DNA of 64,000 bases from Yuukianura sp. NJ FZ-2021 (GCA_046563655.1 CM102286.1:12772001-12836000); one strand, 5' to 3'; positions 2,677 to 44,911 are shown, numbered from the stretch's first letter. Numbers and translations: made by a program. The notes: generated from the letters alone by a model not told the origin.

Positions 2677-5600
2677 ATGAGTAGTAGCTTGGTTCGCTCT
2701 TTGACCAACAATAACACGAGTACTGATGATGAAGAGACTCGAATCAACCTGCTCTTTCCAAAATGTAAAGTTCGAGGACCTCCAGAACCAACGTCACCCA
2801 AAAATAACATTTCCGTTTGTAGTGAAAGTGAGACAAAGTGTGGACTCGACGCCAACTTTCCCAATTTGGCGTTGGTAGCAGAGCGTGCTCGGACGAGTGA
2901 CAGTAATGCAAATAGGGAGAAACTTTTTAGTAGCAAAAATACTACAGGAAAGAAAGAAAGTGAGAAGGAAGTTGTTGGCGGAAGTTTGTACATTGACAAT
3001 AGGCAATCAGGGCAACCAGGACTTGTTCGTGAAAGTGTCGTCGCTGGGTCAAATTTAGGCGGCGGAGTTGGTCAGGCGTCGTTCCCCGGGAGAGCTCAGA
3101 AGATCGGTGAAAACGTGAGCAGAGTTAACAAGAGGAAGGAGGGATATCATTACAACATTTCCAATCAACGTCCTCCCACCCATAATCATAACTCATGCAG
3201 GCCTCCGTGTGGAATTGATCTGCGCCGTCAACTAAACTTAACCAAGTCAAGTCAGTTCCAGAAAGAGAAAACGGAGACTTCGGAGGACGTCATTTCAAGT
3301 TTTAATAACGTTGGTAGTTGGACCGCCGACCGTGGCGGTTTGGACAAAAAGTTGGATAAAGCCACCACCACCCCACCTCTACTTCTGTCCACAACGTGTC
3401 CTTTGACTGCTGGAGACAAAATGGATCTGGACAACTCTGTAGTTGGGGACGAGGACTCTGGTCATTTTGACAATGGGACTGGAAGTGGCAGTAATGGAAG
3501 CACATTTTCAGAAAGCAATACTCCGCTGAGTGGGGGAAGTGGAAGCGGTGGTTCAGTGGCTGGAACAGGACGACCACTTCCAGCTCCCCTGGAAATTGCA
3601 GGAGGTCGTGAAATATTTTCACAAAATAAAACGAGAGCTGGACGGAGAGGGAGAGTTGTTGGATCATCAACTTTGGACTTTGAGCCACATTTCCTTGAGG
3701 CTCAGCAGCCTTCAGCCGGTAGTTCAGCGAATAAGACTGGAGGAGGTAGGAGCAGGAAGGTCATTCCGCCTGGAATGACCGTGAGTCCAAGGTATGCCAC
3801 TAAAAAATCTCCGCTTGGTCGCGGAGAGACTGCTACGCAAGGTTCTGCCTCGTCTTCTGTTTGGGAACTTCAGGTTTCAAAGGAAGAAAATAAGCAATTT
3901 GGTGGTCCTAGGATTCGAAGCGCATACAGACATTACGGTGGGTCATACAAGCAGAAACATAAATCTGGAAATAGTTATGGTAGCCAACTAAGGCAGAGGC
4001 CCCATCATCACCAATCCTTTCCCGTCTACAACTACTATTCTCCACCAAATCCACGGTCAGCCTCCCATCATAATTTTACGAGAGATCCAATAAGTTTACG
4101 TCGTTTGAGTTCCAGTCCACCTTTTCCAGTGACGCAGCGAATCACTACTGGAACCATTAAGGAAACAATGTTTGGAACGGAAATCACTTCAGTTGAAAAG
4201 TCCCTCATTTATGATGAAATGGGGCGACTCGTGAGTTGTGACCAACGACTTCGAACTCTTGACCCTACGCCTACGTCAACCTCCGCTGGAAAGAAATCAG
4301 GCGTAGTTTATGACGTAGGTTATGCTGCGGGAGGGTCTGAGGCAGGAGACATAGTATTTGACGATATCGAGGACTGGAGTGAAAGTGGAGGCGGGAAAGC
4401 CGGCGGAGAAAGTCCTGGAGAAATGAATTCTGCTGGAGAAATGAAGTTTTGTTCCAGTGCCAATTCGTCTTCTGGAGGAGTGTGCTGGGCTGGAGATAAT
4501 GATGAAAAAGGAAAGTTGAGTTATAGTCAGATCATGGAGTCGAGTTCATCTCTCTGTCCATCAATTCAAGTCGAAGGAAATACGAGTCCCAGTGGATATG
4601 AAAGTGACGAAATTTCGGCCTCAGCTCTACCTCATCCAAATTTCCTTAATGAAAATAAACGACTTATTGGGAACGTTCCAATTGCAGAGTATGAAGGATC
4701 ACCGTGGCACAGACCGCGACGCCACGGTGCTCACCGTCACCAACAACCTCCAGCAGCCTCTCTGCCAAATGATTTAGATTTAGTAGACCTTTGCTCTTCG
4801 GGAGTTCACGTATCCTACCATAATACTTCAGCTCCCTCCGCTTTTGAGGGCACAACTTCCGGGAATAAAAGTCCGCCTGACAACCAACATTCTCCTACTA
4901 CTAATTCAAATTTGGCGCAAAATCCTCCAACTACAAAACTACCAGCACAGCAGCAGTCTCAGTCACCAAACAATGGAGCTCGACTGCCCGGCTTTCCACA
5001 ACGGATTCACACAAATCTACATCAGCAACACTCTACACAAAAGTCAAACGCGATAGAATCTTCAGCTACTTTGGCACAAGCTGGAAATACTAGCTGCGGG
5101 GAAGTGATGGATTTTAGTCAAATCGATACAATTGAAAATTCAAACCGATTTCCAAGTGCTCACTCGAAGGACGAAGAATTTGTGAAAGGAACGCCATCAT
5201 CTCAAGAACCCTCTTTGGTTGTTAGTAGTCATGGAGCGTCCCCGGGTTCCAGTGGTAACACAAGCACAAGTCTCCACGCCTTCCAGCCCAATGGGACTAG
5301 TCCAGGAATTTCAGGAACGACAAGCAGTAGCACTGGAGCTGGAAAAGACTTGAATGAATTTAGCTCTCTGACTCTGTCTCGTGAGCAATGTGATTATTTA
5401 TACGAGTTTTCTGAGACGCGCAAAGTTTTAGAAGAGTTTTTTCAGTCTGGAGAAGGAAATGGGAGCGGACGGTTGGTCGGAGGTCGTGGAGGCATTTCTC
5501 CATGTGACTTTGACGAACTTGAGTATACTCTACGGAGACAAAATGGAAACTCGTATGTGGGTCAAAGATTAGCTGGAGATGTTGCCCAAGGATGTGGAGG

Positions 5601-8600
5601 GGCATCGGGCGTAGAAGAATCTCCGAAAATGCCACCACGGCGCGGAGGGCGGGAAGTTGTGATGAGTTTAGGAATTCCGCTTGAAGTAGAAGATGGATCC
5701 GATTTTGGAAGTTCGTCAAGAGTTATTACGCTTCATGACGTTCATGACGTTTCCTCTCGTCTCTCTCCGACGTCAAAAAATTCAGGTCCAGACGACCCTG
5801 GAAACCGGGACGTGAATGATAATGACCTCGACGTGGAAACGGCCTCTACAAACACTGAAACGGATTTAGGAGAAACCGAAATTGGTCATCAAGTGAGCCA
5901 TAATGACTTTTTGTGACTCTGTGTGTGTCTCTCTGTTTGCATTGCTTTAATTAGTTCAGTTTGGTTTCTCACGTCCTTTCATTTTCATTTGCGTTTGGAA
6001 TCCTCCATGGAGGCAGACACTCTGCTCCAGCAACTCAAATTAGGCTTAACACTAGAAAGCGCATGTTTTTGCATTGTGTCCAAGACCGCTGGGAAATAAC
6101 CCTTGACATTCTGTTTTTCTCCTCGTTTCAGGTACGACATCATCCCAGGAACTTCGCCTTGTCTCCAGAAACTACAGACTGCGACTCGAACGAACTGGAA
6201 AGTGAAATGTCGCTGGACTATGAAGTTTCAGTTCATTCGTCAAGTCGTGTTGGGACGACCATGCCGGTACTGGAAGACGGTCTCTCATCTGCCAATGTTT
6301 CAGACAATGACGAAGATGTCCAGGACGAGGAGAATGTAGGAAGTGGGCGCGGAGGTCATGACTCCATGTCAACCGGCGGAGTCAATCCTACTCTACTGCT
6401 AATGAAGAAGCAAATCACTGAGATAGAAAAAGAAATTCAGATGAGAGCGACAATTTCGGGAGGCGGGGGAAACGGGACATTGACAAATTCAGAGGTCGGA
6501 GCGCCTGAAAATCAAGGATTGTCGCTGACGACGCTGGAAGGAGGGAGTTGTGCTGCTGGTTTTGAAGGCCCGGGAACTTCGAAGAAGGCTGAATTTGAGC
6601 TGAGTGCTAATGCAAATATCAAAGTTCATCATGAAGTGCCCGGGAGTTGTGATCGAAGGAGCAACTCTTCATCACTCTTCGATTGTAATGATCCTGAACT
6701 GGAGGCACTGGATCCTATGAGTAAGCCTACTTTTAAAAAAACTAACGCTACTATGTAGTACTACCACCTCATTTTCCAGGTCGAAGCACCCGTCTCTCAC
6801 TTTTTCACTGCGCTCTAATACTCCTCTACACTTTTTTAAAAAACGAAAATAATGAATAGAAAATGCAGTCGACGGAGCTTAAATAACCGATCTGTCATTT
6901 CCTTTTTTTTCTTTTTCTTTCTTGGAAAAGAGCCACTTTTATCCAATTTTTCATCCTGCTTTCTTTTCTTCCTCCCTCACTGTGTACCCTTATGCCTCTC
7001 AACTTTCTCCATTGTTGGAACAGTAGAGAGAGTGGAGTTGAAAGCCAAAAAAGTTGAATCCGCTTAATAGGTTTTCTTATTTCAACCAACCTGGAGAGAC
7101 TTCTGCTTTTATTTCTTTGGAGATTTAATTAATTTTTACAAAGTTTCTTACTTTTTTGCGTATCTCTTCTTTCCATAGCAGAAAAAAGTAACTTTCAGAT
7201 TTTTTTTTCTTCGAAAATGTCAAAACCCAAAGCGCCAAGAACCGGCAACTTTTGCTAAAACTTGTCGGCAAATCAATGAGAGTCAGAAGTTGTTGGGTTT
7301 TTTTTACTGCCGAGATAGTATGTGCTGACTACAATGCACAAATGTGACGAAAAAGTTTTAAAAATGCTATAAAATTGTAATAAACCAAAAACAAATAAAA
7401 GTGTTACAACAATCTCGGTGCAATACAGGAACAGGTTTGTGTTTTCGTTAACTTTGGGAAAAAAACGCGTAACCTGTAGTACCTAACTTTTTAACAAGTG
7501 CTGAAAAGTCCATAGACTGGAAGCGTCCAGGGAATTTGACGAAACTAATTTGTTGTTGACTTTCCGTTTGAATCCAGGGCCAACACCTCCACCTTCTCCA
7601 GCGCCTGCCTCAGCAGCGTCCCACCAAAGTCGTTCCCACAATTTGTCTTCCTCAACGACTCCACTGCGACCAGTGACTTCTTCAATAACTCAGGCAATTA
7701 GTTCTCCCAAAGTTTCGTCTCTAGTGGGAACAACGTCAACGACTACGACGACGACATTGTCGACGGCTAATGGAATCCATTTGTCAACTCCAGGAACAGC
7801 CCAGAGTCTCCCGTCTTCTGAATCTAAAGAGTCAATCTCAACCCACCACCACAACCACCACCACAGTTCCTCTTCGTCATCGTCAACGGAACCTCTCAAA
7901 CTGATTTCATCTATTATGACTCCACCGGACTCCACCAAAGACCCACTTCAGCCCCACCATCGCTCCACCACCAAACAGTATCAATTGCCAAAGTTTGACC
8001 CGTCGTCGTTCACGTCTCTTCTGCCCAAACCTAGCAGTTTGACCATGACGACTGGTCCGGTATGTCCACCACCTCAAGATGACAGTCCGCAGTCCGAACT
8101 TCATGAATCTTCATCAGAAGAGAGACTAGGACCGCATGGGAACAGCATGTCACCCGTCTGGGTTCCCAGGTAATTCCGAACTTCTGTTGTTTTGTTTTAG
8201 AAAAGTTTGAACGCTTGATGTCTTTCTGCGTTTCGACAGCGATTCGGCCGTAAACGCACAAACTAAAGCAGAACTGGTTTTGTTTTGTTAGCAATTTGAC
8301 CAAAGTTGAGTTTTTTTATGGTTTTAGGAGGTCAATACTGAGGGGAGAGAGGAATCATCATGGCGGAGGATTTGGCCTCCGAGAGCCGTTTCTGCGCAGA
8401 CGCTACGAAGAAATTCCAGATGACGGTGAGCGCCTCAAATTTCTTTTTTCTTTCAAATTATACGTACGACGCCGCTGAATTCAATTTGTAACTAACGTCA
8501 ACATTTCCATTATGAAGTCTGACACCTTCCAAAGTAACGAGGCGACAAAATGACAATTGTAATTTGGCAACGCAGAAAAGAAAAAAGAAGCGGAATCGTA

Positions 8601-20600: not shown

Positions 20601-23600
20601 TATTACCCTCCCACTAGTCTTATCAACCAGTACAACCACTGATGACGAACCCACCACGTCCCCACTACTCAGCCCCACCAGACCCACCGACGACGGCGGT
20701 TGCCTCCCCTGGAGCGGCGGAGAAAGTCAACGACCCCACCTCCTCCCCGGCCCCACTTTACAAACCCACCACGTTGACAATTGTGTCACGAGTCGGACAG
20801 GCAGTGCTACTTCGGGTGGCTGCGGTGGTGAGCTGCTTCAGATGTCAGACAAAAGCTCTCAGCGGGTGCTTTCAACAACGTTGACAGGGACAGAAGACAC
20901 CTCTCGGTTTATTGTTGACAATGACGATGCCTTTGAATTTGACTCAGGCCTAATCCTTTTGCGTCAAAGTCCAGACTCTTGTAAGTCTCAAAATAATTCG
21001 TCTTCTACGAGTTCTGACGGAAGTGGGTCAGGAGGCCTGAGAAGAAATCATCATCGGCTGAGGATACAACAGGTTCCGCCGAGTCTCCGCCATCCACCAA
21101 ATTGTTCCTACTCATCAGAATTCCACTACTGTCCACCTCCTTGTGGAGGTGGGGGCGGTGGTGGGTCAGGCGTGACTGGTACAATGTTTCATCTTCGATT
21201 TGTTGGTTCTCTGGAGGTGGAAGAAGAGGTTGGAAGTGGCAGGAATCGACGCAAGAGGCCGAAGAACGTCATGGTGGAGGAGGCCGTGATGGAACTGAAG
21301 GTGGATTTTAATCATTTCCTTGTCTCCACCCTTCCGCACACTTTTGCTCCTTTAAGTCTTAGCAAAGCCACACCCTAAACATATTGCTGTGCTTGCTGCA
21401 TTCACTTTTTTACTTTCACAATTTGTTTCCATTTCAAAAAAAAACACTTTTCAGTTGCATGTTTTTGAAACTTTTTATAATTTTTTGGAACAAAAGTTAA
21501 CAAAACGTTATTCCAGAATATAGAGGTGCAAGCTGTTCGATTTTTCCGACCGGAAGGTTGTATAAAAGTGTATATTTTACGAGCCAAAACGTTAATCTAA
21601 ACACGAAAAAAAGTTAAAGAAAGTTTCTTTGCCAAAAACTTATGAGCAGATTGCAGAAAATGCTTTTGATTACTTTTCGTGCTAGATTTTTTTTCTCCTA
21701 AACTATAAACACTATTTTGCTCGTGTGGAGTGAAAATGCTTTTTTCCTTACTTTCTCTTAAACATTTTTATGGCAAAGAAAAAGTTGTTTGAATTGATAA
21801 TATCTGGATTCCTTTTTGTGTATTTTTCTGTAAAAATTTTAATTGCTGCCTCCATTGTGATGCTCCTGTTGTCTAAAAAAACACAGTCAATGGTAAGGAA
21901 CTATAAGAAAAACAATAGAACAACATTAGGGTTTTACGGATGTTCAGTTCACTGCGTGAAAGCAAACGGAAAGATTAATTCTTCAGACAGATCCCATCAA
22001 CTTTCTCTTTTAGTTTCCCCCTTCACCGTTTTCGTTTCTCTTTTTCTTGTTTTACCTTTGTAGTTTGAACTTAGCAGAGCCTAACATGCAGTTTAACCTA
22101 ACCTTTAAAAAAGACTAAGTTTGAAGTTGATGTTTTGATAAAGTTAAATCCGCTTTATTTTTACTTTGCAATCTCTCGCGTAGTAACTGTAGTAGTCTTT
22201 TAGTCAGTAGTTGTCAGAAAATAGTAGCTAAAGCAAGAAAGCACAAAACCTTTCAGTTCCATTTTCTCAGCGACTAGCGTCGAAACCTCCAGGGCCGATG
22301 CTCTTTTTGAGCTTCAAACTTTTGTTTTCGTTTTTTTCTTTTTTGAAATGTCTTACTCTTTTAGTGTTTAAGAAAAAAGGAAGCTTACATTTTTTTCAAA
22401 CTTTTTTCGACTCGAAAATAGGAAATGGATGGACGGTGTTTAGTTAAACCACGCACACGAAGCTACTGGCTGTAAGTTCCAAGCTCCAAGCTACTGGCAG
22501 GAACAAGGGAAAAGTTTTCACCGCTGAAAAAAACTTTCAACTTTTCTAGATTTCCAATTACTTAACAGGAGATTTAGGCAGGAAATTTAAGCTGTGAGCA
22601 GCTCCATGAGGGTTTCCTTTTGTTCCTTCTGCTTTCTGCTGGAACTTTCAGCTGGTTGTGTGCTAATGGTTGACTGATGATCGATTTCCATTTCTTTTTC
22701 CTTAACTTAAAGTCCGTGCACATATTACTTTCTCCTGTCTTGCCATTTATGAAAAGACTTCATTACGCGTCCAAAAGTAGGCTTTTCAAAAGTTGAGCCT
22801 TGTGTCTATAGTTTCAGAAGGCAAAGTTGGAAGAACAAAGGAAACTAAATATGCCATTTTCAATTTTGTGTCTTTCTACGACGTAGGCACCCGAAGGAGA
22901 GACACAACCAAGCACGGAAGTGGATCTGTTCATTTCAACCGAGAAAATTATGGTGCTCAACACGGATTTAAAGGTAGGGGATTTTGTGGAGCAGTAATGG
23001 AAACCGTCATTGTTTAGTACTAGGAGGATTTGGATTTTGGATGACAATGGTGATGATGATGGATTAAGGTCATAGAGAGAAACTCATAAGTCTGAGTGTT
23101 GTGTATTACAGTGGAAGTACTGGAGATTTTGTAAATATATTTTCCGCTTATGTGTTTTTGCAGGAGATCATGATGGACCATGCCTTAAGAACGATATCGT
23201 ACATTGCGGACATTGGTGACTTGGTGGTGCTGATGGCACGGAGACGACCTGTTCCTACGGATACGCCGGAGGAGCTCTCTAAAATCCATCGTCCTCCTAA
23301 AATGATCTGTCACGTCTTTGAGAGTGATGAGGCTCAGTACATAGCTCAGTCCATTGGTCAAGCCTTCCAAGTGGCCTACATGGAGTTCCTCAAAGCTAAT
23401 GGAATTGAAGATCACAGTTTCGTCAGAGAGATGGATTACCAAGAAGTTCTCAATTCTCAGGAAATATTTGGAGACGAATTGCAAATGTTTGCGAAGAAGG
23501 AGCTGCAGAAAGACGTAAGCTTCCAGGGTGGAGGATTTAAGCTAAGACTAGAAATGGCGGCCATTTTAAACGTGTTTATTTGGTTCCGTAGGTGGTCGTT

Positions 23601-24483
23601 CCGAAAGCAAAGGGCGAAATCCTTGGAGTCGTGATTGTGGAGTCAGGGTGGGGCAGCATGTTGCCCACAGTGGTGATTGCTAACCTGGCTCCTGCTGGAG
23701 CAGCAGCCCGCTGTGGACAACTAAATATAGGGGATCAAATCATAGCTATTAATGGTGTTAGCCTTGTTGGACTTCCACTGTCGACGTGCCAAACTTATAT
23801 TAAGGTAGGGCTCTCAAAGGCTTACTTTCAGCTGGAGTTTGTTGAAGACATTTCTTAATAGAAATTCTCTCGATTCATTAACTCTGCCATTTTCCTTTTC
23901 TTCACTTGGCCTATGATTAATGGGGGACTGGGTTGGTTTCTGGAATCAATTTAATGCAAAGACGCCATTTCTGTTTTCTCTCCAGAATTCAAAGACGCAG
24001 ACTGTGGTCAAATTAACTGTAGTGCCATGTCCACCCGTTGTGGAAGTCAAAATAAAAAGACCGGATACCAAGTACCAACTTGGGTTTAGTGTTCAAAATG
24101 GAGTGGTAAGTTATTCCCGCCTCTCAAAATTTAAAATTACAACATCAGCAATTTCAAAATTTGAAGAACTTTTTTGTCTTAGATTTGCAGCCTTTTGCGT
24201 GGTGGAATCGCTGAACGTGGAGGAGTTCGTGTGGGTCACCGCATTATTGAAATCAACAATCAGTCTGTAGTGGCAGTTCCTCACGAAAAAATTGTTAACT
24301 TATTGGCAACGTCCGTTGGAGAGGTGTGTATTGTGAACACAGAGTGTTGGAATTTAATTTTTGTTTAATATAATTTATAAATATATTATGTAAATTGAAC
24401 CTATTTTTTAGATTAACATGAAGACAATGCCAACGTCAATGTTCCGGCTATTAACAGGTCAAGAAACGCCGCTTTACATTTGA
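2677..24483 (+). CDS. X11L: X11/Mint/LIN-10 family (APBA) adaptor: long disordered N-terminus, PTB domain, two PDZ domains; ~2031 aa (~2290 aa with the cassette exon)
   Basis: ATG in GCCGCCATG context at 2677. Phase-consistent GT-AG exons: 2677-5892, 6132-6720, 7578-8169, 8328-8425, 10227-10306, 16109-16465, 17315-17351, 18727-18869, [20524-21300 optional], 22887-22973, 23164-23514, 23592-23804, 23986-24105, 24183-24323, 24412-24483. [21 protein letters not shown]...[25 protein letters not shown]...[16 protein letters not shown]...[19 protein letters not shown]1: [24 protein letters not shown]2: [26 protein letters not shown]-terminus [14 protein letters not shown] is typical of Mint proteins. 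Linkage of the far N-terminal exons rests on phase only. Confidence 0.93.
9075..9158. repeat. Cluster of TATAGTCTAT / ATAGACTATA inverted repeats
   Basis: TATAGTCTAT at 9076 and 9125, its reverse complement at 9094, and partial copies at 9141 and 9150. Confidence 0.6.
20524..21300 (+). CDS. Candidate 259-codon phase-0 cassette exon of the X11 gene, inserted inside the PTB domain
   Basis: Acceptor cctatgcag|GCC at 20523/20524. The frame is open for 777 nt and ends [41 protein letters not shown], followed by a weak AAG|GTGGAT donor. The phase matches both flanking PTB exons (ending 18869, starting 22887). Confidence 0.65.
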
Positions 24484-28991: not shown

Positions 28992-31900
28992 TTACTCTTC
29001 ATCGTCATCCTCAATGTCGTCATCAGTAGCATATTCAGACTCCTCCGACTCCTTGGCTTTCTCTTCCTCGTCTTCTGATATGTCCCATTGGGGATGTTCC
29101 TCGATTTCTTTGGCTTCCTGGACGTCCAACTAATCATTGAAGAAAGTAAGTAATTGTTTTAGCAAGTTTAAATCAGAACATTTAAGTTTGAAGAGAGACA
29201 GAAAAAAGTGTACCTTAATTTCTCGTTGTTGGTCGAAGCCTAGGTATGAATCGGATCGAAGGCATACCGTGAATGTGTAATGACCTGTTTTTCTAGGAGC
29301 TGTAAACTGTAATTCACATTCTTGAACATCTATTAAATCAGTGACCAAGTAGGGGGCAGTGAGCAACTGTTTGTTTTTACGGTCACAAACATACGTCCAC
29401 CAGTACTCCTGCTTGACCTGAAAGTGAGTTGGAAGGTATAAAGTGTATTAATGTTTAAGACATTGAAGAAACAGTTAAATTAAAGGTGGTAGGATTGTAC
29501 TTACGTCTGGAAAGTATGGACAATGTACTGGGTGAGAAATTTTGCTTTTGCCTTCAAGCGCCCGTTCTTTGTTTTTGGCCAGAGTCGTCTGACATTTCTC
29601 CCATTCCTTATCGTCATCTACGGCGTCGGCTGGTTTCTCCTGGAAAGTAAAAGATCGTCTCACATTCGCTCCGACATTGTTGAGTGACGTTATTCTAAAA
29701 GATTATTAGAAAATACCTTCTCTTGAGAGTCACTGAATTCGGAATCAGTTGGGGTTTCCTCACTGCCTTCTTTCTCTTCGTCACTTTCTTCAGCATCAAC
29801 TGAAGCTTCCTTGGATTCTTTGATTCGTGGTGGTGCCTCTAAAGCTTCCTTGTTCTCTCCGGAAGGCGTTCGTTGTTTCACAGCCTGTTGTGCTGGTGCC
29901 GCCTGTTTCTTCTGTTGGGGCTTGTTTTTATTTGCGGGTTTCTTCCCACCTCCTTTTTTATTTCGCTGCCAAACGGGCTTCTTCTAAAAACACGAAACAA
30001 AATTGCTCAGCACTGAATTCACACAACAATCCTGTATCTGAAGTAACTTCCGACCAATTTCTCCGGACGATCTTACCGGAGCAGGTTGTGCTTGAGAATC
30101 AGAAGCCTCAGCCTTGTTCTCATCTTCAACTTGGTCATCAACCTCAACGGATTCAGATGCCGTTTTATTTATTGCAACATCCCCAGCAAGCAAGCTGCTC
30201 ATTGTATCTCGTGTTAATGTTACTGTTACAGTAACAATTGCTCCAGCAGTCACCACGGCTGACTGTTCGTCGTCGAGAACTAAGAAACAAAATGTAATAT
30301 TGTACACATTAGCATAACAAAAACCTAACTTAACATTAAATCGCTCCTCTTACCTTCACATTGTACTTTGAAGTTGATCAAAGGCATAGAGGAACAGACT
30401 TTGATTACGTCTTGATACTGATCTTCTGTAAGAATCTTCAGGAGAGCTCTGCGGTCATCTTCTTTCATTTGGCAAAACTGCTGAATCGTGCGAACCTGAC
30501 GTTTCTTTGAAAGAAAATACTTCTGCATGTCTTCCGTAATGTGAGGCAATTGGAGAAGGGGGCTACGAGTTTCCCAGAGGGCTTGTACGATCATGGGGCA
30601 CATTTTCATCACCGAATCGATTGTTTCCAAAGTGGGAAGCCTGCCGACTGAACACACAGCACATTGTTAAACTAGAGCTAAATTCTATAAGATCATATCA
30701 ACTGAACTCTAATGTTTCCAAATTCAGAACGCTTACTTCTGCCAGCATGTGCCAACATAATCAGCTGTGAAACGCAAGTAACCATTTCTTGAATAAGGTA
30801 AGGACTTTTCTTTACAACGAATTGACGATCGAGTTCCAGCGTGAACGGACTGAGTTGCAATCGTGATAAATGAGCATGAAGAAGCGCCCGGGCTTTCAAT
30901 GAATACGGGTAACACAAAGGCCGCTCTCTATTCTTTTCATTCAGATTCGGTAGCTGCTTGATTAGCTGTAAGTATAAGAGTGTCAGTTCAGTTATGACAT
31001 GAAAAAAATCAGAAAGTGAACGAAGGCTTGACGTCTACAGGTACCTTACCTGTGGAACTTCTATATTGTCACTTAAGCGCTCCTGAACTTCTGCTGGATT
31101 ATGAGCTTTGTCGAATTCAGCTGACGAAGCCAATATCATGAGTGCACGTTTCAGTACCATTTGTGGTGTTTTGTGAAAAAAATAGTAGTACAGCTGGGTC
31201 GTCGCTAAAAGAACCTGAAAACAAGAATGTATTAAACGTAGTAGTACCCAAAACTATCTTCCAAGCTATTTACAAAGAATAGTAATAGTAAAGAGGATAA
31301 CATCAGGAAGCTCTTACCTTATCACTTGAATATTGGATTGATTTATACCACCATGTACCCACAGTTACTGGCAGTAGAATCATGAAAACTAGAGCATAAG
31401 CCCCCAGCACCCAAATAGAATTCTCTTTGTCAACAATCCACGACGGCAGAGCAATACCAAAGCTCATTGCGCCTGGACCATCGGGATTTCCATATCGCTC
31501 CCAGTTTCTTCGTGCTGTTTCATCCGTGAGTGCTTGGTAAGCTAAATAAAAATATCGGTATAAGTTACACAGCGACCCAATTCAGGACATTTGTAGATTG
31601 GAATCTAGAGTTCAAGACTTTAATTATTGGTTACCTTTAGTTAGTTTCATAAACAGTTTCTCATCTCCAGTTTCCTTGTCAGGATGGTAAATCAGTGATA
31701 GCTTCCTGTAAGCCTTTTTGATAGCACCTTGAGATGCACTCTGAATTAAAAGAAAGTAACAAACTTATGAGCTGATGACAAAACTTATGTTAGGTTTAAC
31801 ATGCTGTCTTACTGTTTCGACGCCAAGAATTTCGTATGGGTCAAAGTTGGCATACTCGTATTCGGCTTGTGTTACTTTATACAGTACAAATGCAAAAAAT

Positions 31901-32473: not shown

Positions 32474-33371
32474 CTTTTCCTTTGCTTCCCTTCCGCCCGT
32501 AATGTTCCACGGTGACACCGTGAAAGTACCGTTATTGTTACGTGTCCACTTAAGCTATGGTCGGTAAGTTTATCTCTCTTGTCAGTCACCCTCTACAGCC
32601 GTTTTCCCTGCTAAACTTTTATGATTTTTGGCAAAACTTCCGTTTGTCTTCCGTGCTAAAAATTGATCATATGAAAGGATTGACAATTGATTTGAACTTC
32701 GCGGCATGAACACGTCGACCCTACGGAGATACAACTCATAACTCTGCTTTAAAAATAAATTTCATGTTTTGTCTTTTTAGATGGCCCACATTAATCAAAC
32801 AGTAACATCAATCAATTAGCAAGCCGGCGATGCATCGAACTAATTTCGTAATGAAACGATTTTCGTGGAAAAATTGGCAATGATTTGCGGGAATTATAAA
32901 TTTGAAAATAAATTCGGTTAGTGTGTGGGTTCGTCAACACACCACCCCAATGCTCGTATTCCGAGCTGGGCATGAGTATAGCATCTAAAGTTTAAGTTTT
33001 TAGTTAATTATTGTTGAAACATTAATTTCAATTGATAGTTTAGTCGCAGTTGATTTACATAATTACTATAATTGAAATTAATTTTTTTTTACTAAGTTTT
33101 GGTGATTATTACAAATAATAAAATGGTAGGATATTTTTTTTCAATGAAGCATTTTTTTGCTATGGCGATTTCAAAAAATTAGCTGAGGTCATTGACCTTA
33201 CAACAAAGAATCAGCTGTGCCTCGCCAATCCATCGCTCGCCCCTCTCTTCAGTCGTTGTTTGGACTTCGTAGAGGACAGATCGATACTTTATACCAAGAA
33301 TTTATTTGCTCAATTTGCAACAATCGTCAGCGATCGGAATCGGAGACGATCTATCCAGGAACTGTAACAAG
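32474..33371. promoter_or_regulatory. Probable shared divergent promoter/5' UTR region between SEC63 and the M16C-like gene
   Basis: The two start codons face away from each other about 1.1 kb apart (32227 on -, 33372 on +), with the putative SEC63 5' UTR exon ending at 32474. No specific core promoter element was confirmed. Confidence 0.4.
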
Positions 33372-36300
33372 ATGGCGGCCTTTGATCTCGCAGCAGAGTT
33401 CATGGCCAATGGCAACATTCCCATCAAGAAGTACGTCTCAACCCGAGATGGCAGTGGCTTGAATGCCTACTTCGTCGACATGGACTGTCAAGTCATCAAT
33501 GGCTACTTTTGTTTTGGTAAGTTTTCAATTCTGCACTGCACGGTGTCAGCGAAATGGTCTCTCAATCCGTGTTTCGTATAATTTCAGGCATTGATCATCC
33601 GGAAGCCAACGGGATCGAATCGCTTATGCTTCATTTCGATTCATCCATGGGAACTGTTCCGAAGGCGCTGAGGGGAGAAACGCTGAAACCAGCTTGGCAG
33701 TTCCACGGTGCCGAGAATTCCTTGAGCGACAGAGATCAGTCTTGCTACATCTGCACTGCACTGGGGGAGAAGTCATTCGAAGACGTCTTTGTTTCTGGAA
33801 TTCTGACGCTGCAAAACATGGAGGCATGGCCTTTAAATTTTAAAAATTAATTGTATTAATTCATGATGATTATACGTTTACTCTTTTCTTCTTTCAGCAC
33901 GTTTTCTCAGCGCATTCGCTGAAAGCGGCCCAAGACAAGGCTACGGATGGTGAGTCGCTAATTCAAATACAGTGAAAAAGAATCAAGCATTTTGCATTAA
34001 ATTCCTAGTTCAATTACTTAGGTGCTGAAATTCCACCGAATGCGGACATCGGACGCGGAGATGAATCGGAGTCTGATCCTGAGCTGAAGATTACGCCTGA
34101 CGAAGTCTACTGTCTAAGTGAATCTGGAGAAGGCGCCATGGCTTGGGAAGGAACAATTCAACTCATGTTTCCAGGTAATTATTTTTAATATTTAATTTAA
34201 AATTTAAGTAATTTAGTTAAAATTTTCAATACTTACAGGAGTGAAGTCCTTTGGAAATCGCCTCTTGTCGTCCGGAGACGCAGCTCTACTGTCCCAGAAG
34301 GTTATTGACCTTGCTTAAATTTTGTATTCCAAATGTTTTTTTTTAACTCAATTTTTGTGAATTTCAGACCGTGGATTGTTTCTTCAACTTTTATCGCCCG
34401 GATAACCTAAGTGTCATCATCGCAGGCAAAATTGAGGATAAGGCAAAGATTCTGGAAATGCTGGGTGGATATGAGGAAGACTATTACGCTACCGTAAGCT
34501 TGACAAGTTGTTTTAAGGTTTGAGTTATTGTTGAAATTATTTGAATTAATTTTTGAAACATGTTTAGCATGACGCTACTCCGTTCATCCGTCCATGGACC
34601 TACGACATTCCAAATAATGTTTATGCCAAGGAAAACGCAACGTCCATTGCCAGATTTTTTCCAAGAAATCCAAACAGAGAGCCAACAGCAACCGTCTGCG
34701 TTGGCTGGCGGGGCTGCAATTCACTGGATATTGAAACGTAAGAAAAATAATTTTGAACTATTTGGAAGTACAATTTCTTAAAATTACGGTTTTTTTTTCA
34801 GTGCGTTGGGCATCAAGGTCCTCACTGCTCACCTCGCAGTTGGGCCACTTTGGACTCAATTTGTGGTTTCTGGAGATGTTCAACGCATTTCTTGGTGTCA
34901 GTTGGAATACGTTGACTGCTGCTCTTTGATCACGATGCATGGAATTACCAGTGACGAAATTTGCGAGAAAATTTGTCGTGAAACGGATGACATTTTGGAT
35001 GATTTGGGTGATGTGCAGAAGAACTTGTTGAATTTGGACGAAGTTAGACAAATGGCGGATCGCGTTGGGTGGCATTATGTTCGTGAACTGGAGGCGGATC
35101 CATACTTGATTTTGGCTTCAGCAATTTCCAAAGCAGAGAGATACGGAATGGGACAAAAGGAGCAATTGGAGAAGCGTCTAAACCCGCTTCAAGTTTTCAT
35201 GGCACTGAAAAACAAACCGCTGGACTATTGGCAAGGTTTGATTCGAACGTACTTCATTGGTGGTGGAACGTTTGCAACAAGAGTGCTTCCTGGAGTAAGA
35301 AATGCTTTAAATAAGCCGTTTTGTTTTAAATATTTGGAAATTCTAATACATTTCAAAATTTTCAGGCGTACGATAAAATGGAATTGCCTACTGCTCCTGA
35401 AGTTGCACCAGTGGAAGCCGCAGAACCTCAGCAGTTTACTTCATCTTCACGACGGGCATCTTCCCGACCACGTCGTCGAGCAAGCGCAGTCGGCGAAGAG
35501 AGCAATGCTGCGGTCACTGGAACTGACAATGCTCCGACAACCGACGTTCCATCTCCTCGACCAACAGTAAAAGAAGTCAAGGCTGGATATCTGGAGAGCA
35601 TGATGACACAAAACGCTTTTCCATTCGGTGATCGTGTAAGACATTTTTTTATTTCGAATTTTTTAAACGGTTTACCCGAGACATTGACGAAGATTAAGAT
35701 TGAATTTATTATTTTAGACTGAAGAATTAAATGATTTCAAGAGTCGACTCCAAGACTATGTTCGAAGTATCAGCGAAGTTGCTGAAGAAAAGAATCGTTT
35801 CTTTCCAATTACGAGCTACCGCAGCGACGGTCCTAAACAGCATCAATCGTTTCCAGTTGATGACATGCCGTTTTTCACATTTGTGGAGGATGTCCAGACA
35901 TCGTTTGTTTATGTAAGTGTCAATATTTATCAATTTACTGTAGTTTGAAACAAAGAATTTAATGTAATCTCTGTTTCTAGGCAACTGTTGTCGTCGACAC
36001 AACTAACTTGGACGCTGAAATGCGCAAGTGCATTGCTCCAATCACTGCTGCTTTAGGAGCCATTATTTGTCCACGACCACCAGGTGTGACAGACTCACTA
36101 TGGACAATAATTCCTGATTATCAATTTCTAAATTTAAAATTTTGAAAGTCTAAATTCGAAATTTTGAATTTCAGGTTTGGATACTGACAACGAAATTTTG
36201 GAACCGAATGAATTCAACCCTCCGCGCCGAATCGTCGATTCACAAGTTTCACTCGGAGTCAATGGAGAAATGATGCAGCACATCTTCATGATGTTGATCG

Positions 36301-37791
36301 TTTTGCCGGAAAACTACGAATGGGCCGTCGGAATGTTCCAAAATCTTCTGTACAAACCGGACTTTAGCCTGAATTTTCTCAAATTCATCTCAAGTGAAGC
36401 CATTAAGGGTCTTGCTGCTAACTACAGAATGCAAACTGCCGAAGTACCAAATTACGACTGTTTTGATTCGGCAGAAATCAACCTCCATTCGCTTGTTGAA
36501 ATGATCTACAAACCTGGTAAGTACAAATTTCAAAATTCAGAAAACCGTTACAACTGAATTTTATTAGTTTCAGTTTTTATAATTTTTTTTCTCGTTTAGA
36601 TTCAAATGCTCGCTTATTCGTCGGTCGTCGGCGTCTGGATGCCATGAACGAGTTCATGGTTGATCTCGAGCGAGATCCCGAAGGAACCCGAGCTCTTCTC
36701 ATCGCCACTTGGAAGAAAATTGTTGACGAACAAAGTTTTGTTGTTCAGTTGGGCATGGACGTTCAAAAGGTTTCGGATGGTGGAAAAGTTGACTTGGTGG
36801 CTCCGTGGAAGAAATACTTTCAAGGAATTGGGAAGCCTTGGAAAATTCCGTACGTCGAATCTATGCAAATAACTAAGAACAGAAAGAACTAAATATACAC
36901 AATTCTCTAATTCAAAATTAATTTGGTTTGCAGAAATGGAAAACTTCGGCTTGAATCAGAACTGATGATGACTCCCAAGGATACTGGAACTGCCGTGACT
37001 GTCAAACATTCTCGACCACCTTGCCTCACCACCGCAATTCCAATTAGTCCCAGCGGCAAGGACTTTCCAGCGTTGTGTATTGCTGCTCAACTGTTTTCGA
37101 TGGCGCAGAAGTGGATTTTTGCTTGCTTTGGTGAAGAGGACTCTGGAATGCCGGTTTTGCGCATGCCTTGTTCATACTCTCATCTTCTGACGCTCAACCT
37201 CGAATCGAGTGATGTAGTTGGCTTTATGAAAATCATGAAACAAATTATGACTGTAAGTTGGGAAACATTTGTTCCAACTTTTTTTTTGCTGGAATGTGGT
37301 TTTCAAAAACAGAGTATCAAATTATTTTTTGAATTTTTGCTAAAAGATGTTTTCTTGATTGATTTACAGGAAGATTGGAACTGGCTGGAGCCTCTGATTG
37401 TAACGACCAAACAAATGGTGATCAATGATCCAGCAATTATGGACAACGGACCACAGGGAACAATCATGATGGCAGGACTGGCTCATATGTCAGGCATTTC
37501 AGTTGCTGAGCGCCGGTAAGTTAGCGAAGCGTACTACAACTCTATAAACGTTAGACTTTTAATTATTTTTTGGAATTTTGCAGTGGACTTTTGGCTGAGT
37601 GTTTGAAGGTGACGAAAGAAGACTTGCAGCATGTGATCCGAACTTACTTGGTCAAGTTGTTCGACCCCAAGCAGTGTTGGTATGCTCTAATGAGCGAAAG
37701 CTCTGATCAGCCACGCCTGATCGAATGTCTCCGAGACTTTGGATTTACTTTCACCAAGAAAGATCTTCATGAACTTTGCACCGAATTGTAA
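33372..37791 (+). CDS. Divergent M16C (insulinase/presequence-protease clan, C05D11.1-like) metallopeptidase homologue, ~1078 aa, predicted catalytically inactive
   Basis: Sixteen phase-consistent exons: 33372-33516, 33588-33790, 33898-33949, 34022-34174, 34239-34300, 34368-34493, 34568-34737, 34802-35294, 35366-35635, 35718-35912, 35981-36083, 36175-36516, 36600-36849, 36934-37252, 37370-37515, 37584-37791 (3237 nt, no internal stop). Family-like motifs: IPIKKYVS...VINGYFCF, FYRPDNLSVIIAG, FIRPW, VGWRG, YWQGLIRTYF, DVQTSFVY, KVTKEDLQHVIRTYLVKLFDP. The donor at 33791 (GTTTCT) is weak. Confidence 0.82.
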
Positions 37792-38695
37792 ATTAACTCA
37801 ACTTACTCAAAAAAATCAACGACGAACCAATGTACAAATCAAAAGCAGTTCAAATCCAAAAAAGTACAAGATATTTTTAGGGTAGTCTTATTATATCTAT
37901 TATCAATCAATGAAAAAATATTGTGATAAAAGTCAATCATGAACAAACGTTTCTTAGTAATTTGTGATTTTGAAAAATGTTAAGTTTTATTTTTGTACTA
38001 CCCGGATCGATTTACAGAAAATCGAAAGTTGTTTTGTCACAGTTTGATAGATTGTCATTTCGTGGCCGCATGTTTAGGTCAGGAACTACCATGAGTGATG
38101 TCAAAAGTTAATTAAATTATAAGAAGAAGTAGAATTTTTTTTTGCTATTGTGCTACAACATTACGATTTTTTCAAACACTTGGAAGAATTATATGTATTA
38201 TTTTTAAGCATTTTATTTGAATAGTAGTAAGGAAGAGTAAGGACGAAACTAAAAAATACAAACCATGTTAGTTAATGAAATTGCATTTCAAAAAAATTAA
38301 CGGGCGTTTAGTTTACAAACTGCGATTTTACAACTCGATTCCAGTTTTCTTTCCGACGCGTCTCACTCCAGACATGGAAGATGAGCGTAATTTCTGTTTC
38401 AGCACGCAAGGATCAAATCACTCTCCAGAGAATCCGAGTGAATTGGCGTGGGCAATTCTGGAAATACTTCCTACACTGATTTATTGGATTCTAATTGCGA
38501 AATTCTTGGCAAGTGACGTCAGGGGTTGGGAACATGAAAAGACAAAATGTGTAAAATTGCGCAATTGTTGGAATTTGACGGGCTTGACAAAACCAGGAGT
38601 CATGGACTAGAACTTTGTCAGTTTCAATTTGGGAAGAATTCGGAAAACATTTTTAGTATTTACAAAAATTTGAAATATTTTCCGAATTTTCCAAA

Positions 38696-41600
38696 ATGAA
38701 CAACAGCAGCACATGTGTATCACACCTACTGATTCCGGATTCTGACCAGGTTTCATATTCCAGAATTTCTATAGCTTTTTACTGCCTTGAAATTTCTCCA
38801 AAATATTTTAATTTGTAGGTGCAAATTGTTGTGAGCCGATCATCATCAGGAAGAAGTGGCGGAACTGGAACGGACATTCGCGTAACAGCTTTGAATCGCA
38901 AGTCAACTCGAGGTGAACTAAATCGGAGCCAAACTTCGCCATTAGTTTTTACAGGTAAAATTTTCAAATTTCGAAACATAAATTTCTAAAGTGTACTTTT
39001 CAAAATTTTCCAGAAATTCCACCAAGAATTCGCGGACGAAGTCCAACTAAAATTCCAGCAATACGACGTTCTTCTGGTAGTAGCGGCATCAGCTCCTCTC
39101 CAAACGGCACCTCCAACCTTAATGGTAAGAACTTAATTTTCAACGAAATGCTTATTTAAAAATTTGTCGGAATTTTTTTAATTTCATAAAATCTATTGAG
39201 ATCCAGTTTATGAAACGGAAGAGTCAGAAAGATTTGAGGACTTTCTAAGAAGCAATTCCTCAGTCGTCGAAGACTGCATTTCAAGATGTGTCGACAAAGG
39301 ACTTCTGGAAAAAATCGTCGTCAACAATCTTCAGACAGATCAAGAAAAAGAAGCATTTTTGACACGTTGGAAGTTGTGTCCACCACCATCCCAAATTCGA
39401 TCGACCGCAAAAGGCTTAACGGTGTCAATCGGAACCAAGTTGGTAGAAGGAACAGTACGATGGCAATTGGCACAATTCATTTCAACACTCGTTTATGCAG
39501 ACTGTTTCACATTGTACCTGGCAGACAAGCTGCAAACCAATCTCCGCAGATTTTCAGCAAAATCGATGTAAAACATACAAAAGAAAAAACTCAGCATTTT
39601 TTGAATAACTTTGCAAATCTTTGAACAAATTTTTAGGAAACCCGAGACGTCTACTATTTCAATCACAGAAGCAGCTACGCTGGCTGCTTTTGTGGCCAAA
39701 AGACGTCAAGCTCTGCGGATTGAGCGGACTGAGGCTGAACAAAGATTTATGGAAGGAGTTGGAGACGCTGACCAATCAACTGAGCACAGCGTCTTCATTC
39801 TTTGTTTGCCAATTTTAAGTGCCCATGGGGAAATTGCTGGGGTCATTGAACTCCATCGACTGCAAATCAGTGGATCGTTTACACTGGAAGAAGAAGAAGT
39901 TGCAAATAGTTACTTGATTTGGGGTGGGATTGCCTTTTACTATGCAGACATGAACGTTGTTCTCAGCAAGCAGAAGAAACTGAACGATTTTCTGCTCAAT
40001 GTTGTCAAGTAACAGTGTTAAACTTTTTGGAATTTAATTTTGGCGAGAAATAATGTAATGGTGAAAGGTTTATTGCAAAAGCTCAATTTGGCGTTGTGTA
40101 CTGCTTTTCAGATCCATCTTCCAGGACATGGTGTCAATGGACTCCGTTATAAAGAAAGTGATGAAGTTTGCCCAAAAGTTGGTTGACGCTGATCGAGCAT
40201 CGCTTTTTCTTCTGGACAACAAAACTAAGGAATTGTATGCACGAATTTTCGATTTGGAATGGAGCAATGAAGTGGCACAAAACGGAGAACAAGAAACTAC
40301 GTCAGCCAATGAAATTCGGTAAAATTACTAAAAAATTAATTTCAAAAGTTGAAAAAATTGATAATTTCATACTCTTAAAAGGAAATTCTTTTTAAATTTA
40401 TAATTCTTACGTTTTAGGTTTCCACTTGGACAAGGCATTGCAGGTCAAGTTGCTTCTACGGGAAATCCACTTCGTGTGGCAGACGCTTACGAAGACGAGC
40501 GATTCAACTGTGAAGGTGATGAAATTCTTAAAAAAAAATTGACAGCAAAATTCTCGAAGGTTTCTTTTGTTCCTAAAAAATAGTTTCAAAATGTTTATTC
40601 CAGTTGACAAAAAAACTGGCTACAGAACAAAATCCATCCTGTGCATGCCAGTTTTCATAAAATCAACGGTGATTGGCGTTGTTCAAATGGTGAACAAGAA
40701 AAGCGGTGGTGAATTTACGCAGGAGGATGAAGAAGCTTTTGAAACTTTTGCCGTTTACTGCGGCTTGGCTCTCCACCATGCCAAATTGTACGACAAAATC
40801 CGACGATCTGAACAAAAATCAAAAGTCGCCGTGGAAATTTTGTCGTATCACAATACCTGTTCTGGATCCGAATTTGACTTGCTGAAGAAAAGCGGACTCC
40901 CAAAAACAGTTTTGGGATTGGATGAGTTAGTTTTCCAACAAAATTTCAAACATACTATTTTTCTAATTTTTTAACGTTTTAGTTACTACTTTCCACCAAC
41001 TTCAGTCGATGACATGACCAAAGTCCACTATTCCGTGTACATGTTCTTTGACCTCTTCGGGTCACAGCGTTTCGACGAAGACACACTCTACCGCTTTTGC
41101 TTAACGGTGAAGAAAAACTACCGCCGTGTCCCATACCACAACTGGAACCATGGGTGGACCGTGGCGGTGAGCCAAAATAAATCCTTCGTCACTGTCACAG
41201 CGTTGGCCATTTTTTTCCTAAGAAAATGGTTTCAGAAAAAAAGTTACAACAAATTTTTTTCTTTTTCAGAATTCCATGTACTGTATCCTAAAAGCCAGCA
41301 ACATCTTCAGACCACTTGAGGCAATTTTCTCTTGTTCATCACTTTCATTTTCCGTGACAGTCGAATGTCCAGCTTTCCCTTGTCTTTTTTTCTCTTGCAG
41401 TGTTTGGCTCTCTACGTTGCATGTCTTTGTCATGACTTGGATCACAGGGGAAAGAACAATAAGTTTTTGGCAGATACAGCCAATCCCCTGGCTTCAATTT
41501 ACACCACATCCACCATGGAGCACCACCATTTCAATCAGACAGTTACGATTCTGCAGCAGGTAATGGTCAACCACAACTCTTTTTAACGAAAATGAACTTC

Positions 41601-43081: not shown

Positions 43082-44911
43082 TCACACAAAACGGAAAACA
43101 TCCTCATGATAATACTGCATTTCGATTCCATCGTCTTCTGACGTTTGTCTACCATTAAGGCGATGCGCAGTCGCAAGAGCAACTTTATGATCGTAGTCGA
43201 TGTCAAAAATGGTCAAGAACTTGTCAGGATAAAGATGATCGTAAAGTGACAAGCCAAAGCCATAGATACACGCCCAGAATCCTACGATGAGACACGTCCA
43301 GAAACAAGCACCATACCTGTACAAAAACGTCAAAATATTTTCAAAAAATATGGGAAACGTTTTTTTTTTTTCAAAATTGATCAGAATCAGAATCTTACTT
43401 CAATTTTATAAATTCACCAGCAATGTAAATTGGCGGGAAATGTTGATCGGCCCGAACCCAGTGATAGTACATGATCGAATTGATTATCATCAGCACTCCA
43501 GCAACAATGAACGTGTAGCTACTGTACCTTGGAATTGCCGCCACAAAAAGTATGGCCAGAAACCACACTCCGAGGGCAAAGGTCAACGTACAGTAACAAT
43601 GATATCCAGCCTCCATGATGTCATGTGACCATCCGAATCCCTCTTGCGCCGAAGTCAGAAAGTGAACAACCGACAGTAGTGGAATCGGCATTCCATGTTG
43701 AATGGCTTTCTCCATGCTGGGCTCCAGTAGTTCCGGTTTGAAGAGTCGGATTCGTTCGTTGTAGAAAAAGACTTCGTCTGAGTCCTTGGGAACAATCGTG
43801 ATGTTTCTGTGTCTCATGTAGATTGGCCTAAAGGGATTGTGAAGCGTAACATTAATTGACGCCAAACCAACATGAAGACGCATTTCCATCCAGTAGACCT
43901 GCTAAAAACAACAAAAGTGATGATGAAATGTACTTGGCAGAAGTCTAACCTAACCAAAGTGTCTGGCACTTTCGGCTCTTTTAGGCAATTAGTTCAAAAC
44001 TAAACAAATGGAGAAAGTGACTTTCTAACCTAACAAACTGAGGTGGAAAATCAAGTTTCAGCAGTCTACCCATCAGATACAAAACGGCAGTCAGACACTG
44101 TTGGACGGCAACTTATGAACCACCAGTTCTGAACAAGTTTTTGCTTAAGGTTAGCGTCCGTTAAAGTCGCATTTGATAAGTGTCTAGTGAAGATTGAGTG
44201 CCCAGGGGTGCATAAGTGGCCGTCCAGAAGTGTCGGAGAATTAGTCGGAACGCACTGACAGTGAGGAAAAGCTAATTTCTTGCGAGATTTTGTAGAAGAG
44301 CAAGAGGGAGCACGAATAAAGTGGAAAGTGTTTTGAGTTTGCATTTTGGCGGGTTAGAAAGTAAATGCAAATGAAAATACCTTGGGCGAATAATAACTCA
44401 TCGGAGATTGAATTACGGCGTAACCCGTGAGCCATTCCGGACTAATGAGACATAACGAGATTGCTACGCCAATGCCAATGGAGTTCACCGCCTACAAAGT
44501 TCAAAAATATTTTGGAGAGAGAATTATTAATTTCCTGTTCCGGCGGGAGCCTTATGCAAACACGTCGACATCAGTTCACAAGCGGTTGCAAAATTCAAAA
44601 CATACGCGCTTTCTCTCTCACTTAGTTTTTGCAAAACTAAGCACTAGTAAATTCTAATTTTATGGGAGATGTTATTTGCTTCCAGAATTTAAATGTTAGC
44701 TTACCGCAATCACTGAATGCATCTTCTGGCGAATGATTGGTAGAATCAGGGCCAACACGGTAAGAAATGTAACAGCAATTCCGATAATGGCCATCACTGA
44801 TCGTTGCAAATAGGCATCAGCGACCATCCGAACTACTTCGTCATAGTAAGTCGGTCCACCAGGGTTGTAGCGTCCGAGAGAGAAAAACCACCAAGGATAG
44901 TCCCAGGTCAT
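43082..44911 (-). CDS. Dual oxidase maturation factor-like (DUOXA/NIP/moladietz family), ~350 aa, divergent
   Basis: Exons 44911-44705, 44491-44381, 43898 (or 43901)-43399, 43316-43082, phases consistent. Motifs GGPTYY, LILPIIR, LHVGLASINVTL, FYNER, AIQHGMPIPLLSVVHFL, EGFGW...AGYH, KYGACFW, DKFLTIF; about five hydrophobic helices. Confidence 0.85.

Follow-up and report, generated by a model that had tools for sequence, protein, structure and literature searches.

A full-length M16C-type clamshell protein with a degenerate zinc site in Yuukianura sp.: a probable conserved pseudopeptidase

Introduction

What does an M16 peptidase become when the residues that hold and use its zinc are replaced; is such a gene dying, or has its product turned to other work? 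This question is raised by a gene at positions 33372-37791, on the plus strand, of a 64,000-nucleotide stretch of DNA from Yuukianura sp. NJ FZ-2021 (GCA_046563655.1 CM102286.1:12772001-12836000), the whole of which we call the window. The original prediction, made from the sequence alone, saw in this gene a full-length M16C metallopeptidase homologue of the C05D11.1-like subfamily with a degenerate catalytic site. Our computational follow-up leads us to regard its product as probably a conserved, non-cutting clamshell pseudopeptidase, with a rebuilt chamber whose inside would hold a ligand or a protein segment and with a hinge insert that is a candidate regulatory switch. Given the loss of both zinc-binding and catalytic residues, the protein most likely acts by binding, not by cutting.

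Loss of the zinc and catalytic residues

Homology to known proteins is far above chance, because exon 8 alone (34802-35294, +; residues 315-479, second domain), used as a query, retrieves P0001, a 1142-residue protein of the springtail Orchesella dallaii, at E 6.7e-44; the spliced gene model aligns with P0001 over its entire length, at 49% identity (531 of 1083 columns). Together with O. cincta P0160 (88% identical to P0001), a partial protein of Allacma fusca (P0002, the catalytic motifs lying outside its span) and unnamed relatives, these proteins make up what we call the clade, whose named members come from two springtail genera. A HMMER scan of 1.84 billion representative sequences gave 192 matches, many of them exon-sized fragments at 40-98% identity, with full-length proteins at only 21-30%. 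Fragments of the clade account for 59 of the 69 short matches, and the clade appears mostly in this form because such exon-sized entries were predicted on genomic contigs that still carry introns (see below). The named full-length relatives are entries titled 'uncharacterized protein C05D11.1(-like)' from wasps, phylloxera, spiders, mosquitoes, ticks and moths, and the nearest full-length active relatives bear these names in arthropods.

The active relatives have the zinc motif HxxEH, mostly as HTLEH, and it stands near residues 50-100 in 60 of 70 full-length proteins; of the ten that lack it, seven are N-terminally truncated and three are degenerate insect proteins. When the window protein is aligned by MAFFT with 15 active relatives, their G[LIC]PH[TCV]LEH[LM] faces GIESLMLHF (residues 57-65; 33611-33637, +), in which the first His is replaced by Ser and the catalytic Glu by Leu while the second His is kept, and their second motif, mostly GVVYCEM(Q), faces EVYCLSE, which puts a Leu at the place of the distal zinc-ligand Glu. 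The latter residues belong to DEVYCLS (residues 171-177; 34099-34119, +), at the start of DEVYCLSESGEGAMAWE (34099-34149, +). All three substitutions had been named in the original prediction, with coordinates that hold, and the comparison with active relatives now bears them out. The positional equivalence of the first motif follows from three agreeing comparisons: the MAFFT alignment; a BLASTP alignment of P0001 with a Limulus member, which sets GIEQLLHQL on GLPHTLEHL without a gap (E 2e-17); and HMMER local matches, P0045 and P0144, that span the region. For the distal Glu, the register rests on a conserved Y-C/S pair, and MAFFT places the adjoining insert variably.

The loss is shared across the clade. 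Its first motif reads GIESLMLHF, GIEQLLHQL, GIEQLINHL, SVETLLYHL or GIEQLIHHL, none of these five containing HxxEH, and the distal-Glu place is Leu in 12 of the 12 sequences that cover it. Each clade relative that covers the sites has other residues in place of the distal Glu and of two or more of the HxxEH triad. Additionally, in domain 4 the canonical IRGxGLAY, the region of the M16 R/Y pair (described in the available portion of PMC12731061), faces LRMPCSY within PVLRMPCSYSHL (37151-37186, +). Its Arg is kept in 12 of the 12 covering clade sequences; its Tyr is shifted closer by one residue, with Phe instead in a single clade sequence, and a 9-residue insert stands just upstream.

Might an intact motif lie elsewhere? 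The gene contains no HxxEH, and a six-frame scan of the window gives two, at 29315 (+) and 2899 (-), both outside the gene and beside stops, a number close to that estimated for chance. We rule out a missed exon carrying the motif, there being no HxxEH in the gene and introns too short for an alternative exon. No second M16 locus is found in the 64-kb window either, all 19 high-scoring segment pairs (HSPs; E <=0.007) of eight canonical queries falling within this gene.

An intact gene under constraint

Is the gene a decaying copy? The model rebuilt from exon coordinates comprises 16 exons, separated by 15 introns that range from 64 to 117 nt, and its spliced coding sequence of 3270 nt encodes 1089 residues followed by TAA, with no internal stop, in agreement with the 16 in-frame exons of the original prediction, whose length of about 1078 residues was slightly short. 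The start codon is the first ATG downstream of an in-frame TAG at 33270. Fourteen of the 15 introns are GT-AG. Intron 2 (33824-33897, +) is GC-AG, with its GC donor at 33824; its junction, LQNME|HVF, is backed by the gap-free alignment of the spliced model to P0001, and a metagenome relative (L003) uses a regular GT donor at the matching codon (L003:550).

Sequence variants bear on the same question. In the public DNA runs X1, X2 and X5, contigs at least 80% alike to window positions 33200-37900 differ at 403 variant positions and by 93 indels, so that more than one haplotype of the window's organism, or close relatives of it, must be present in the samples. Among the best-supported 40 of the 403 variants, 18 are intronic and 22 exonic, the latter comprising 21 synonymous changes and a single nonsynonymous one (A528T); with 724 synonymous and 2543 nonsynonymous sites in the coding sequence, the ratio for these 40 is about 0.014. 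All of the indels listed (12 of the 93) are intronic, as are both joints.

Comparison between loci points the same way. A scan of JGI metagenome contigs yielded four genomic loci of clade relatives (L001-L004), whose HSP ends coincide with window exon ends and fit conserved intron positions. Against these loci, over 495-997 codon pairs, the proportion of differing synonymous sites (pS) is 0.78-0.82, which is saturated, and that of nonsynonymous sites (pN) is 0.20-0.34; with synonymous sites saturated, we give this selection between species as a qualitative contrast. The clade protein P0278 is a 370-residue uninterrupted open reading frame on a 1349-nt contig, and it probably derives from the spliced RNA of a relative, because its frame runs through three intron positions of the window gene. 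A related observation concerns P0003, P0010, P0279 and P0024, exon-sized 'proteins' that extend beyond the equivalent of the end of exon 14, P0003 reaching the following exon in frame; such entries come from gene prediction on genomic contigs with the introns still in place, and they mark a conserved intron position.

A pseudogene, or a gene-model artefact with an accidentally open frame, is consequently hard to credit, and we give it almost no weight. The need for one GC donor speaks for it; against it stand the frame open over 3270 nt and 16 exons, the synonymous variants and intronic indels in the sampled reads, the matching exon ends of the four metagenome loci, the transcript implied by P0278 and full-length orthologues at 49% identity. 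We reject a pseudogene on the synonymous excess, the intronic indels and the low pN against saturated pS. As judged from these sequences, an intact gene is being kept by strong purifying selection, and the original prediction was right in not taking it for a decaying copy; the ratio of nonsynonymous to synonymous change, which it had proposed to compute, is far below 1 for the 40 variants sampled from the reads, and the qualitative contrast between loci goes in the same direction.

Family placement and fold

Which M16 branch did the protein come from? By its full-length named matches and by its place in a tree (see below), the gene belongs to the C05D11.1-like (YOL098C-like) branch, the subfamily to which it had been assigned. 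Canonical members are about 1000 residues long, colinear with the clade proteins throughout, and share with them Peptidase_M16_C and the scaffold motifs YRPxNL, RPW and WRG; in the window protein, FYRPDNL, FIRPW, VGWRG and KVTKEDL are all present in the translation, as had been noted. The differences are no less clear. Canonical proteins are just 17-30% identical to P0001, in a family that is itself highly conserved: P0008, an unnamed canonical query whose closest named matches are mites, is about 45% identical to echinoderm members. Canonical relatives carry PF00675 (Peptidase_M16) and PF05193 (Peptidase_M16_C), often with PF08367, whereas P0001 matches PF05193 (E 5.5e-15), with PF00675 and PF08367 undetected. 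The clade differs in lacking HxxEH, the distal Glu and, as seen in P0001, a match to those two profiles, in adding two inserts, one acidic (domain 1) and one basic and Ser-rich (hinge), and in its very long stem.

A search of P0001 against sequences in the Protein Data Bank gave no match at E up to 1, and its fold was approached by AlphaFold2. The model has a mean predicted local distance difference test score (pLDDT) of 75.2 and a predicted template modelling score of 0.79, with low confidence at 150-218, the acidic insert, and at 540-608, the hinge insert. Its best Foldseek match is Arabidopsis PreP (2fge_A; E 1.4e-27, TM-scores 0.60/0.69, about 1200 columns), followed by human PreP and falcilysin (4nge, 6xov and falcilysin entries) and by insulin-degrading enzyme at about 1e-19. 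On this model the orthologue keeps the four-domain M16C clamshell fold class, PreP- or falcilysin-like, in line with the clamshell that the original prediction had in mind. The likeness to PreP and falcilysin is one of fold class, at 11-13% identity, and those proteins are active organellar peptidases that hold HILEH and the distal Glu (PMC12731061, available portion).

Evolutionary history

When was the site lost? In an initial LG+G4 tree of 74 rows the clade was drawn to the other long branches, and the result was flagged for long-branch attraction. A second tree (LG+C20) was limited to 30 mostly named rows; the 44 rows taken out were all the unnamed or N-terminally truncated ones, except five kept as outgroup. 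Here the clade falls within the hexapod group, with 89 in the Shimodaira-Hasegawa-like approximate likelihood ratio test. Its stem measures 6.36 substitutions per site, and its inner branches measure 0.86 and 0.52, like canonical insect branches; such a burst followed by conservation is the pattern expected from a change of function. As read from the alignments, the loss is common to the unnamed clade relatives and predates the split of the window and Orchesella lineages, a split across which synonymous sites are already saturated.

Other members of the family have strayed as well. In place of the HxxEH motif, Culicoides brevitarsis P0027 has AVAFTLEEL, Cimex lectularius P0286/P0101 has GLPYIVKHI and Lycorma delicatula P0148 has GIPNAIKYF. 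These proteins share with the clade their parent family, a replaced HxxEH and long branches; they differ in having none of its new motifs or inserts. Catalysis may have been lost repeatedly in the C05D11.1-like family, with the tree's warning of long-branch attraction to be kept in mind. The original prediction knew of no characterised inactive member of this subfamily. Our literature searches agree, having turned up no publication that deals with an inactive M16C member, with the clade protein and its orthologues or with the degenerate insect proteins (subscription journals and supplements being outside the scope); the statement needs qualifying for databases, which hold uncharacterised degenerate members from Orchesella, Culicoides, Cimex and Lycorma. 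What was known already, then, is a set of orthologues entered as unnamed or hypothetical proteins and degenerate C05D11.1-like proteins in three insects.

Rebuilt segments and inserts

What stands where the catalytic residues stood? When the clade is scored in 12-residue segments, the highest conservation (0.95) belongs to AALGAIICPRPP, in exon 11, followed by LSESGEGAMAWE, at the former distal-Glu place, and VDSQVSLGVNGE (0.94 each), and by NARLFVGRRRLD (36605-36640, +) and AENSLSDRDQSC (0.92 each), the last of which lies directly after the former HxxEH helix and leads into a CxxC peculiar to the clade. The hinge block GEESNAAVTGTD reaches 0.88, SSRRASSRPRRR 0.83 and the R/Y region 0.76. The CxxC, absent from canonical proteins, forms part of a conserved clade-specific segment, RGETLKPAWQFHGAENSLSDRDQSCYIC (33671-33754, +; conservation 0.81-0.92, depth 7-10), and at the distal place LSE[AS]GE[GR]AMAWE is near-invariant in the clade (0.94). 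In other words, the former catalytic segments appear, as aligned, among the clade's most conserved parts, yet with new sequence.

The two inserts differ in character. The acidic one (residues about 135-170; 33919-34098, +, a span that includes intron 3) is poorly conserved and absent from canonical relatives, and its counterpart in the P0001 model has pLDDT <50. The hinge one holds a clade-specific motif, SSSRRASSRPRRRASAVGEESNAAVTGTD (35441-35527, +), a basic, Ser-rich block and then an acidic one, which in seven of seven sequences reads S[SK]RA[AS][ST][KR]PRR[KR] and then N[AP][VM][GA][EQ]E[SA]N[VA]A[VI]. It is missing from canonical relatives, whose hinge sequence is unlike that of the clade. 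Where the M16C subfamily has a long helical hairpin joining its two halves, the P0001 model has helices at 521-547 and 556-569, and the insert, in the stretch of pLDDT <50 at 540-608, is predicted to be disordered. A motif of the form R-A-x-[ST]-[KR]-P-R-R-[KR] reads as one of the basophilic-kinase, 14-3-3 or nuclear-import type.

Could these rebuilt segments be a new active site? The proposal would be that the protein is still a hydrolase, working through a non-canonical metal or catalytic site to which the second His, where kept, the CxxC and the acidic block LSExGE would contribute. The most conserved segments of the clade are indeed rich in His, Cys and Glu, and an unusual metal site might be built from these nearby residues (GIE, WQFH, CxxC, LSExGE); the second-His position is still His in four of the five clade variants, that of the window included; and bovine core I, an M16 protein whose motif is changed to YFVEH, retains a low level of activity (PMC12731061, available portion). 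These points weigh against a protein that only binds, and so do several that concern the evidence for the window protein itself. The fold was modelled on an orthologue, 49% identical to and colinear with the window protein, from a 78-row alignment, and the model is of low confidence (pLDDT <50) at 82-114, just after the HxxEH equivalent. The variant classes come from the 40 best-supported positions and are a sample of the 403. Lastly, the profile search that had been proposed as a check is divided in its answer: PF05193 is found in P0001, PF00675 is unmatched, and among the window's own exon translations (14 of 16, exons 3 and 5 being too short) none exceeds the Pfam threshold, the best being exon 6 with M16_C at E 0.017 and the others at chance level.

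We nonetheless judge a surviving hydrolase quite improbable. The retained His is not universal, being Gln in Orchesella; where the general-base Glu would stand, clade members have Leu, His, Asn or Tyr; and the PF00675 profile goes undetected in P0001. Nor are we aware of any M16 enzyme that is active in the absence of HxxEH.

A proposed binding chamber

How, then, might a non-cutting pseudopeptidase work? We envisage a full-length, single-chain, four-domain clamshell of M16C type, apparently descended from a hexapod C05D11.1-like peptidase gene, in which the catalytic zinc would no longer be held, nor water activated in the canonical way. The burst of change on the stem would have rebuilt the former catalytic segments into the near-invariant PAWQFHGAEN..DRDxSC[YF][IV]C, LSE[AS]GEGAMAWE and RMPCSY. 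The interior of the clamshell would still be in use, to bind a peptide, a protein segment or another ligand without cleaving it, and the disordered hinge insert, with its basic Ser/Thr motif, is a candidate switch between open and closed states or a candidate docking site for a partner. A possible precedent comes from the only functional study of a probable family member that our searches turned up. We take SDD3 to be YOL098C, and on the strength of that gene name Sdd3 would probably be a member of the C05D11.1/YOL098C family. In C. albicans, Sdd3, a putative metalloprotease, acts by binding Bem2, a GTPase-activating protein of Rho1 (PMC11796410, available portion); we treat this precedent as a lead only.

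The best-known inactive M16 proteins suggest a different role. MPP alpha and the core proteins of cytochrome bc1, of the M16B type, likewise have no working zinc motif and are kept for a non-catalytic role, and inactive homologues are known as essential partners of M16 enzymes (available portions of PMC11266112 and PMC12731061). By analogy, the clade protein could be a non-catalytic partner subunit of an active M16 enzyme, e.g. of a canonical C05D11.1-like copy, presenting its substrate or regulating it as MPP alpha does for MPP beta, and its grouping with hexapod canonical genes is compatible with a lineage-specific duplicate. However, the M16 pseudopeptidases described so far in those sources are two-domain partner subunits of about 50 kDa that pair with a second subunit and have a glycine-rich loop and no R/Y pair, whereas the window protein unites the four domains in one chain of about 120 kDa, of which the catalytic half is itself dead. 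M16A and M16C enzymes are described as monomers with a mass of roughly 100 kDa that already contain an inactive half of their own (PMC12731061, available portion). As for the enzyme to be partnered, the 64-kb window holds no canonical copy, and no springtail name occurs among the 120 listed of 546 matches to P0008. We consider a partner subunit unlikely, if less so than a surviving hydrolase.

A pseudopeptidase that binds inside its own chamber remains our preferred reading, and it can be pushed further. In a bolder form, an ancient springtail M16C lineage would have turned into a non-cutting chamber for binding or sensing; its zinc site would have been rebuilt as an invariant site of His, CxxC and the acidic block LSEAGEGAMAWE, perhaps holding another ligand or metal; a phosphorylatable hinge insert would gate it; and it would perhaps have replaced the canonical C05D11.1-type enzyme, as the first wholly non-catalytic single-chain M16 protein. 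We offer this joint reading tentatively, as one that is possible and that we would not expect to hold in all its parts.

Gene architecture and neighbourhood

The whole coding region (33372-37791, +; 16 exons, 1089 codons and TAA) can be laid out as follows, all exons being on the plus strand. Exon 1 (33372-33516, residues 1-48) is matched by canonical relatives at E 3.9e-6, and exon 2 (33588-33823, residues 49-127) bears the degenerate HxxEH site. Exons 3 (33898-33949, residues 128-144), 4 (34022-34174, residues 145-195) and 5 (34239-34300, residues 196-216) lead to exon 6 (34368-34493, residues 217-258), with the scaffold motif FYRPDNL and the weak M16_C match, and exon 7 (34568-34737, residues 259-314), with FIRPW and VGWRG. 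After exon 8, the hinge region lies in exon 9 (35366-35635, residues 480-569), which is followed by exon 10 (35718-35912, residues 570-634), exon 11 (35981-36083, residues 635-668), exon 12 (36175-36516, residues 669-782) and exon 13 (36600-36849, residues 783-865), the home of NARLFVGRRRLD. Exon 14 (36934-37252, residues 866-972) is the one at whose equivalent end the genomic fragments of relatives run into the intron; exon 15 (37370-37515, residues 973-1020) and exon 16 (37584-37791, residues 1021-1089 and TAA, with KVTKEDL) complete the gene. At intron 11, the stretch 36126-36182 is matched by many contigs that are otherwise unrelated and whose flanks hang loose to either side, at a summed depth of about 1100-1300 against about 150-500 nearby; it has the look of a short repeat, either dispersed or of low complexity.

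The surroundings are an ordinary animal gene neighbourhood without an M16 relative. Pfam recognises a PTB/PID exon at 23068-23634 (+; 1.2e-17), a GAF exon at 40543-40974 (+; 2.2e-7) and an exon of the dual oxidase maturation factor DuoxA at 43395-43901 (-; 4.7e-25), together with a Sec63 Brl exon at 30693-31034 (-) that at 1.3e-4 falls below the cut-off. A single open frame of 1095 codons at 2629-5916 (+), with no Pfam match and rich in Ser (155) and Gly (117), looks like a large exon of a disordered protein.

Implications

The importance of this protein is limited by a parent family that is uncharacterised and by organisms that are non-model. Pseudopeptidases are a recognised class that is thinly sampled, and what the clade would add to it is a complete single-chain M16C clamshell with a dead catalytic half, strongly constrained, and with new invariant sequence exactly at the old catalytic places. 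Such a protein would be a natural experiment in what an M16 chamber can do without cutting, and it may offer a handle on the role of the widespread C05D11.1/YOL098C family.

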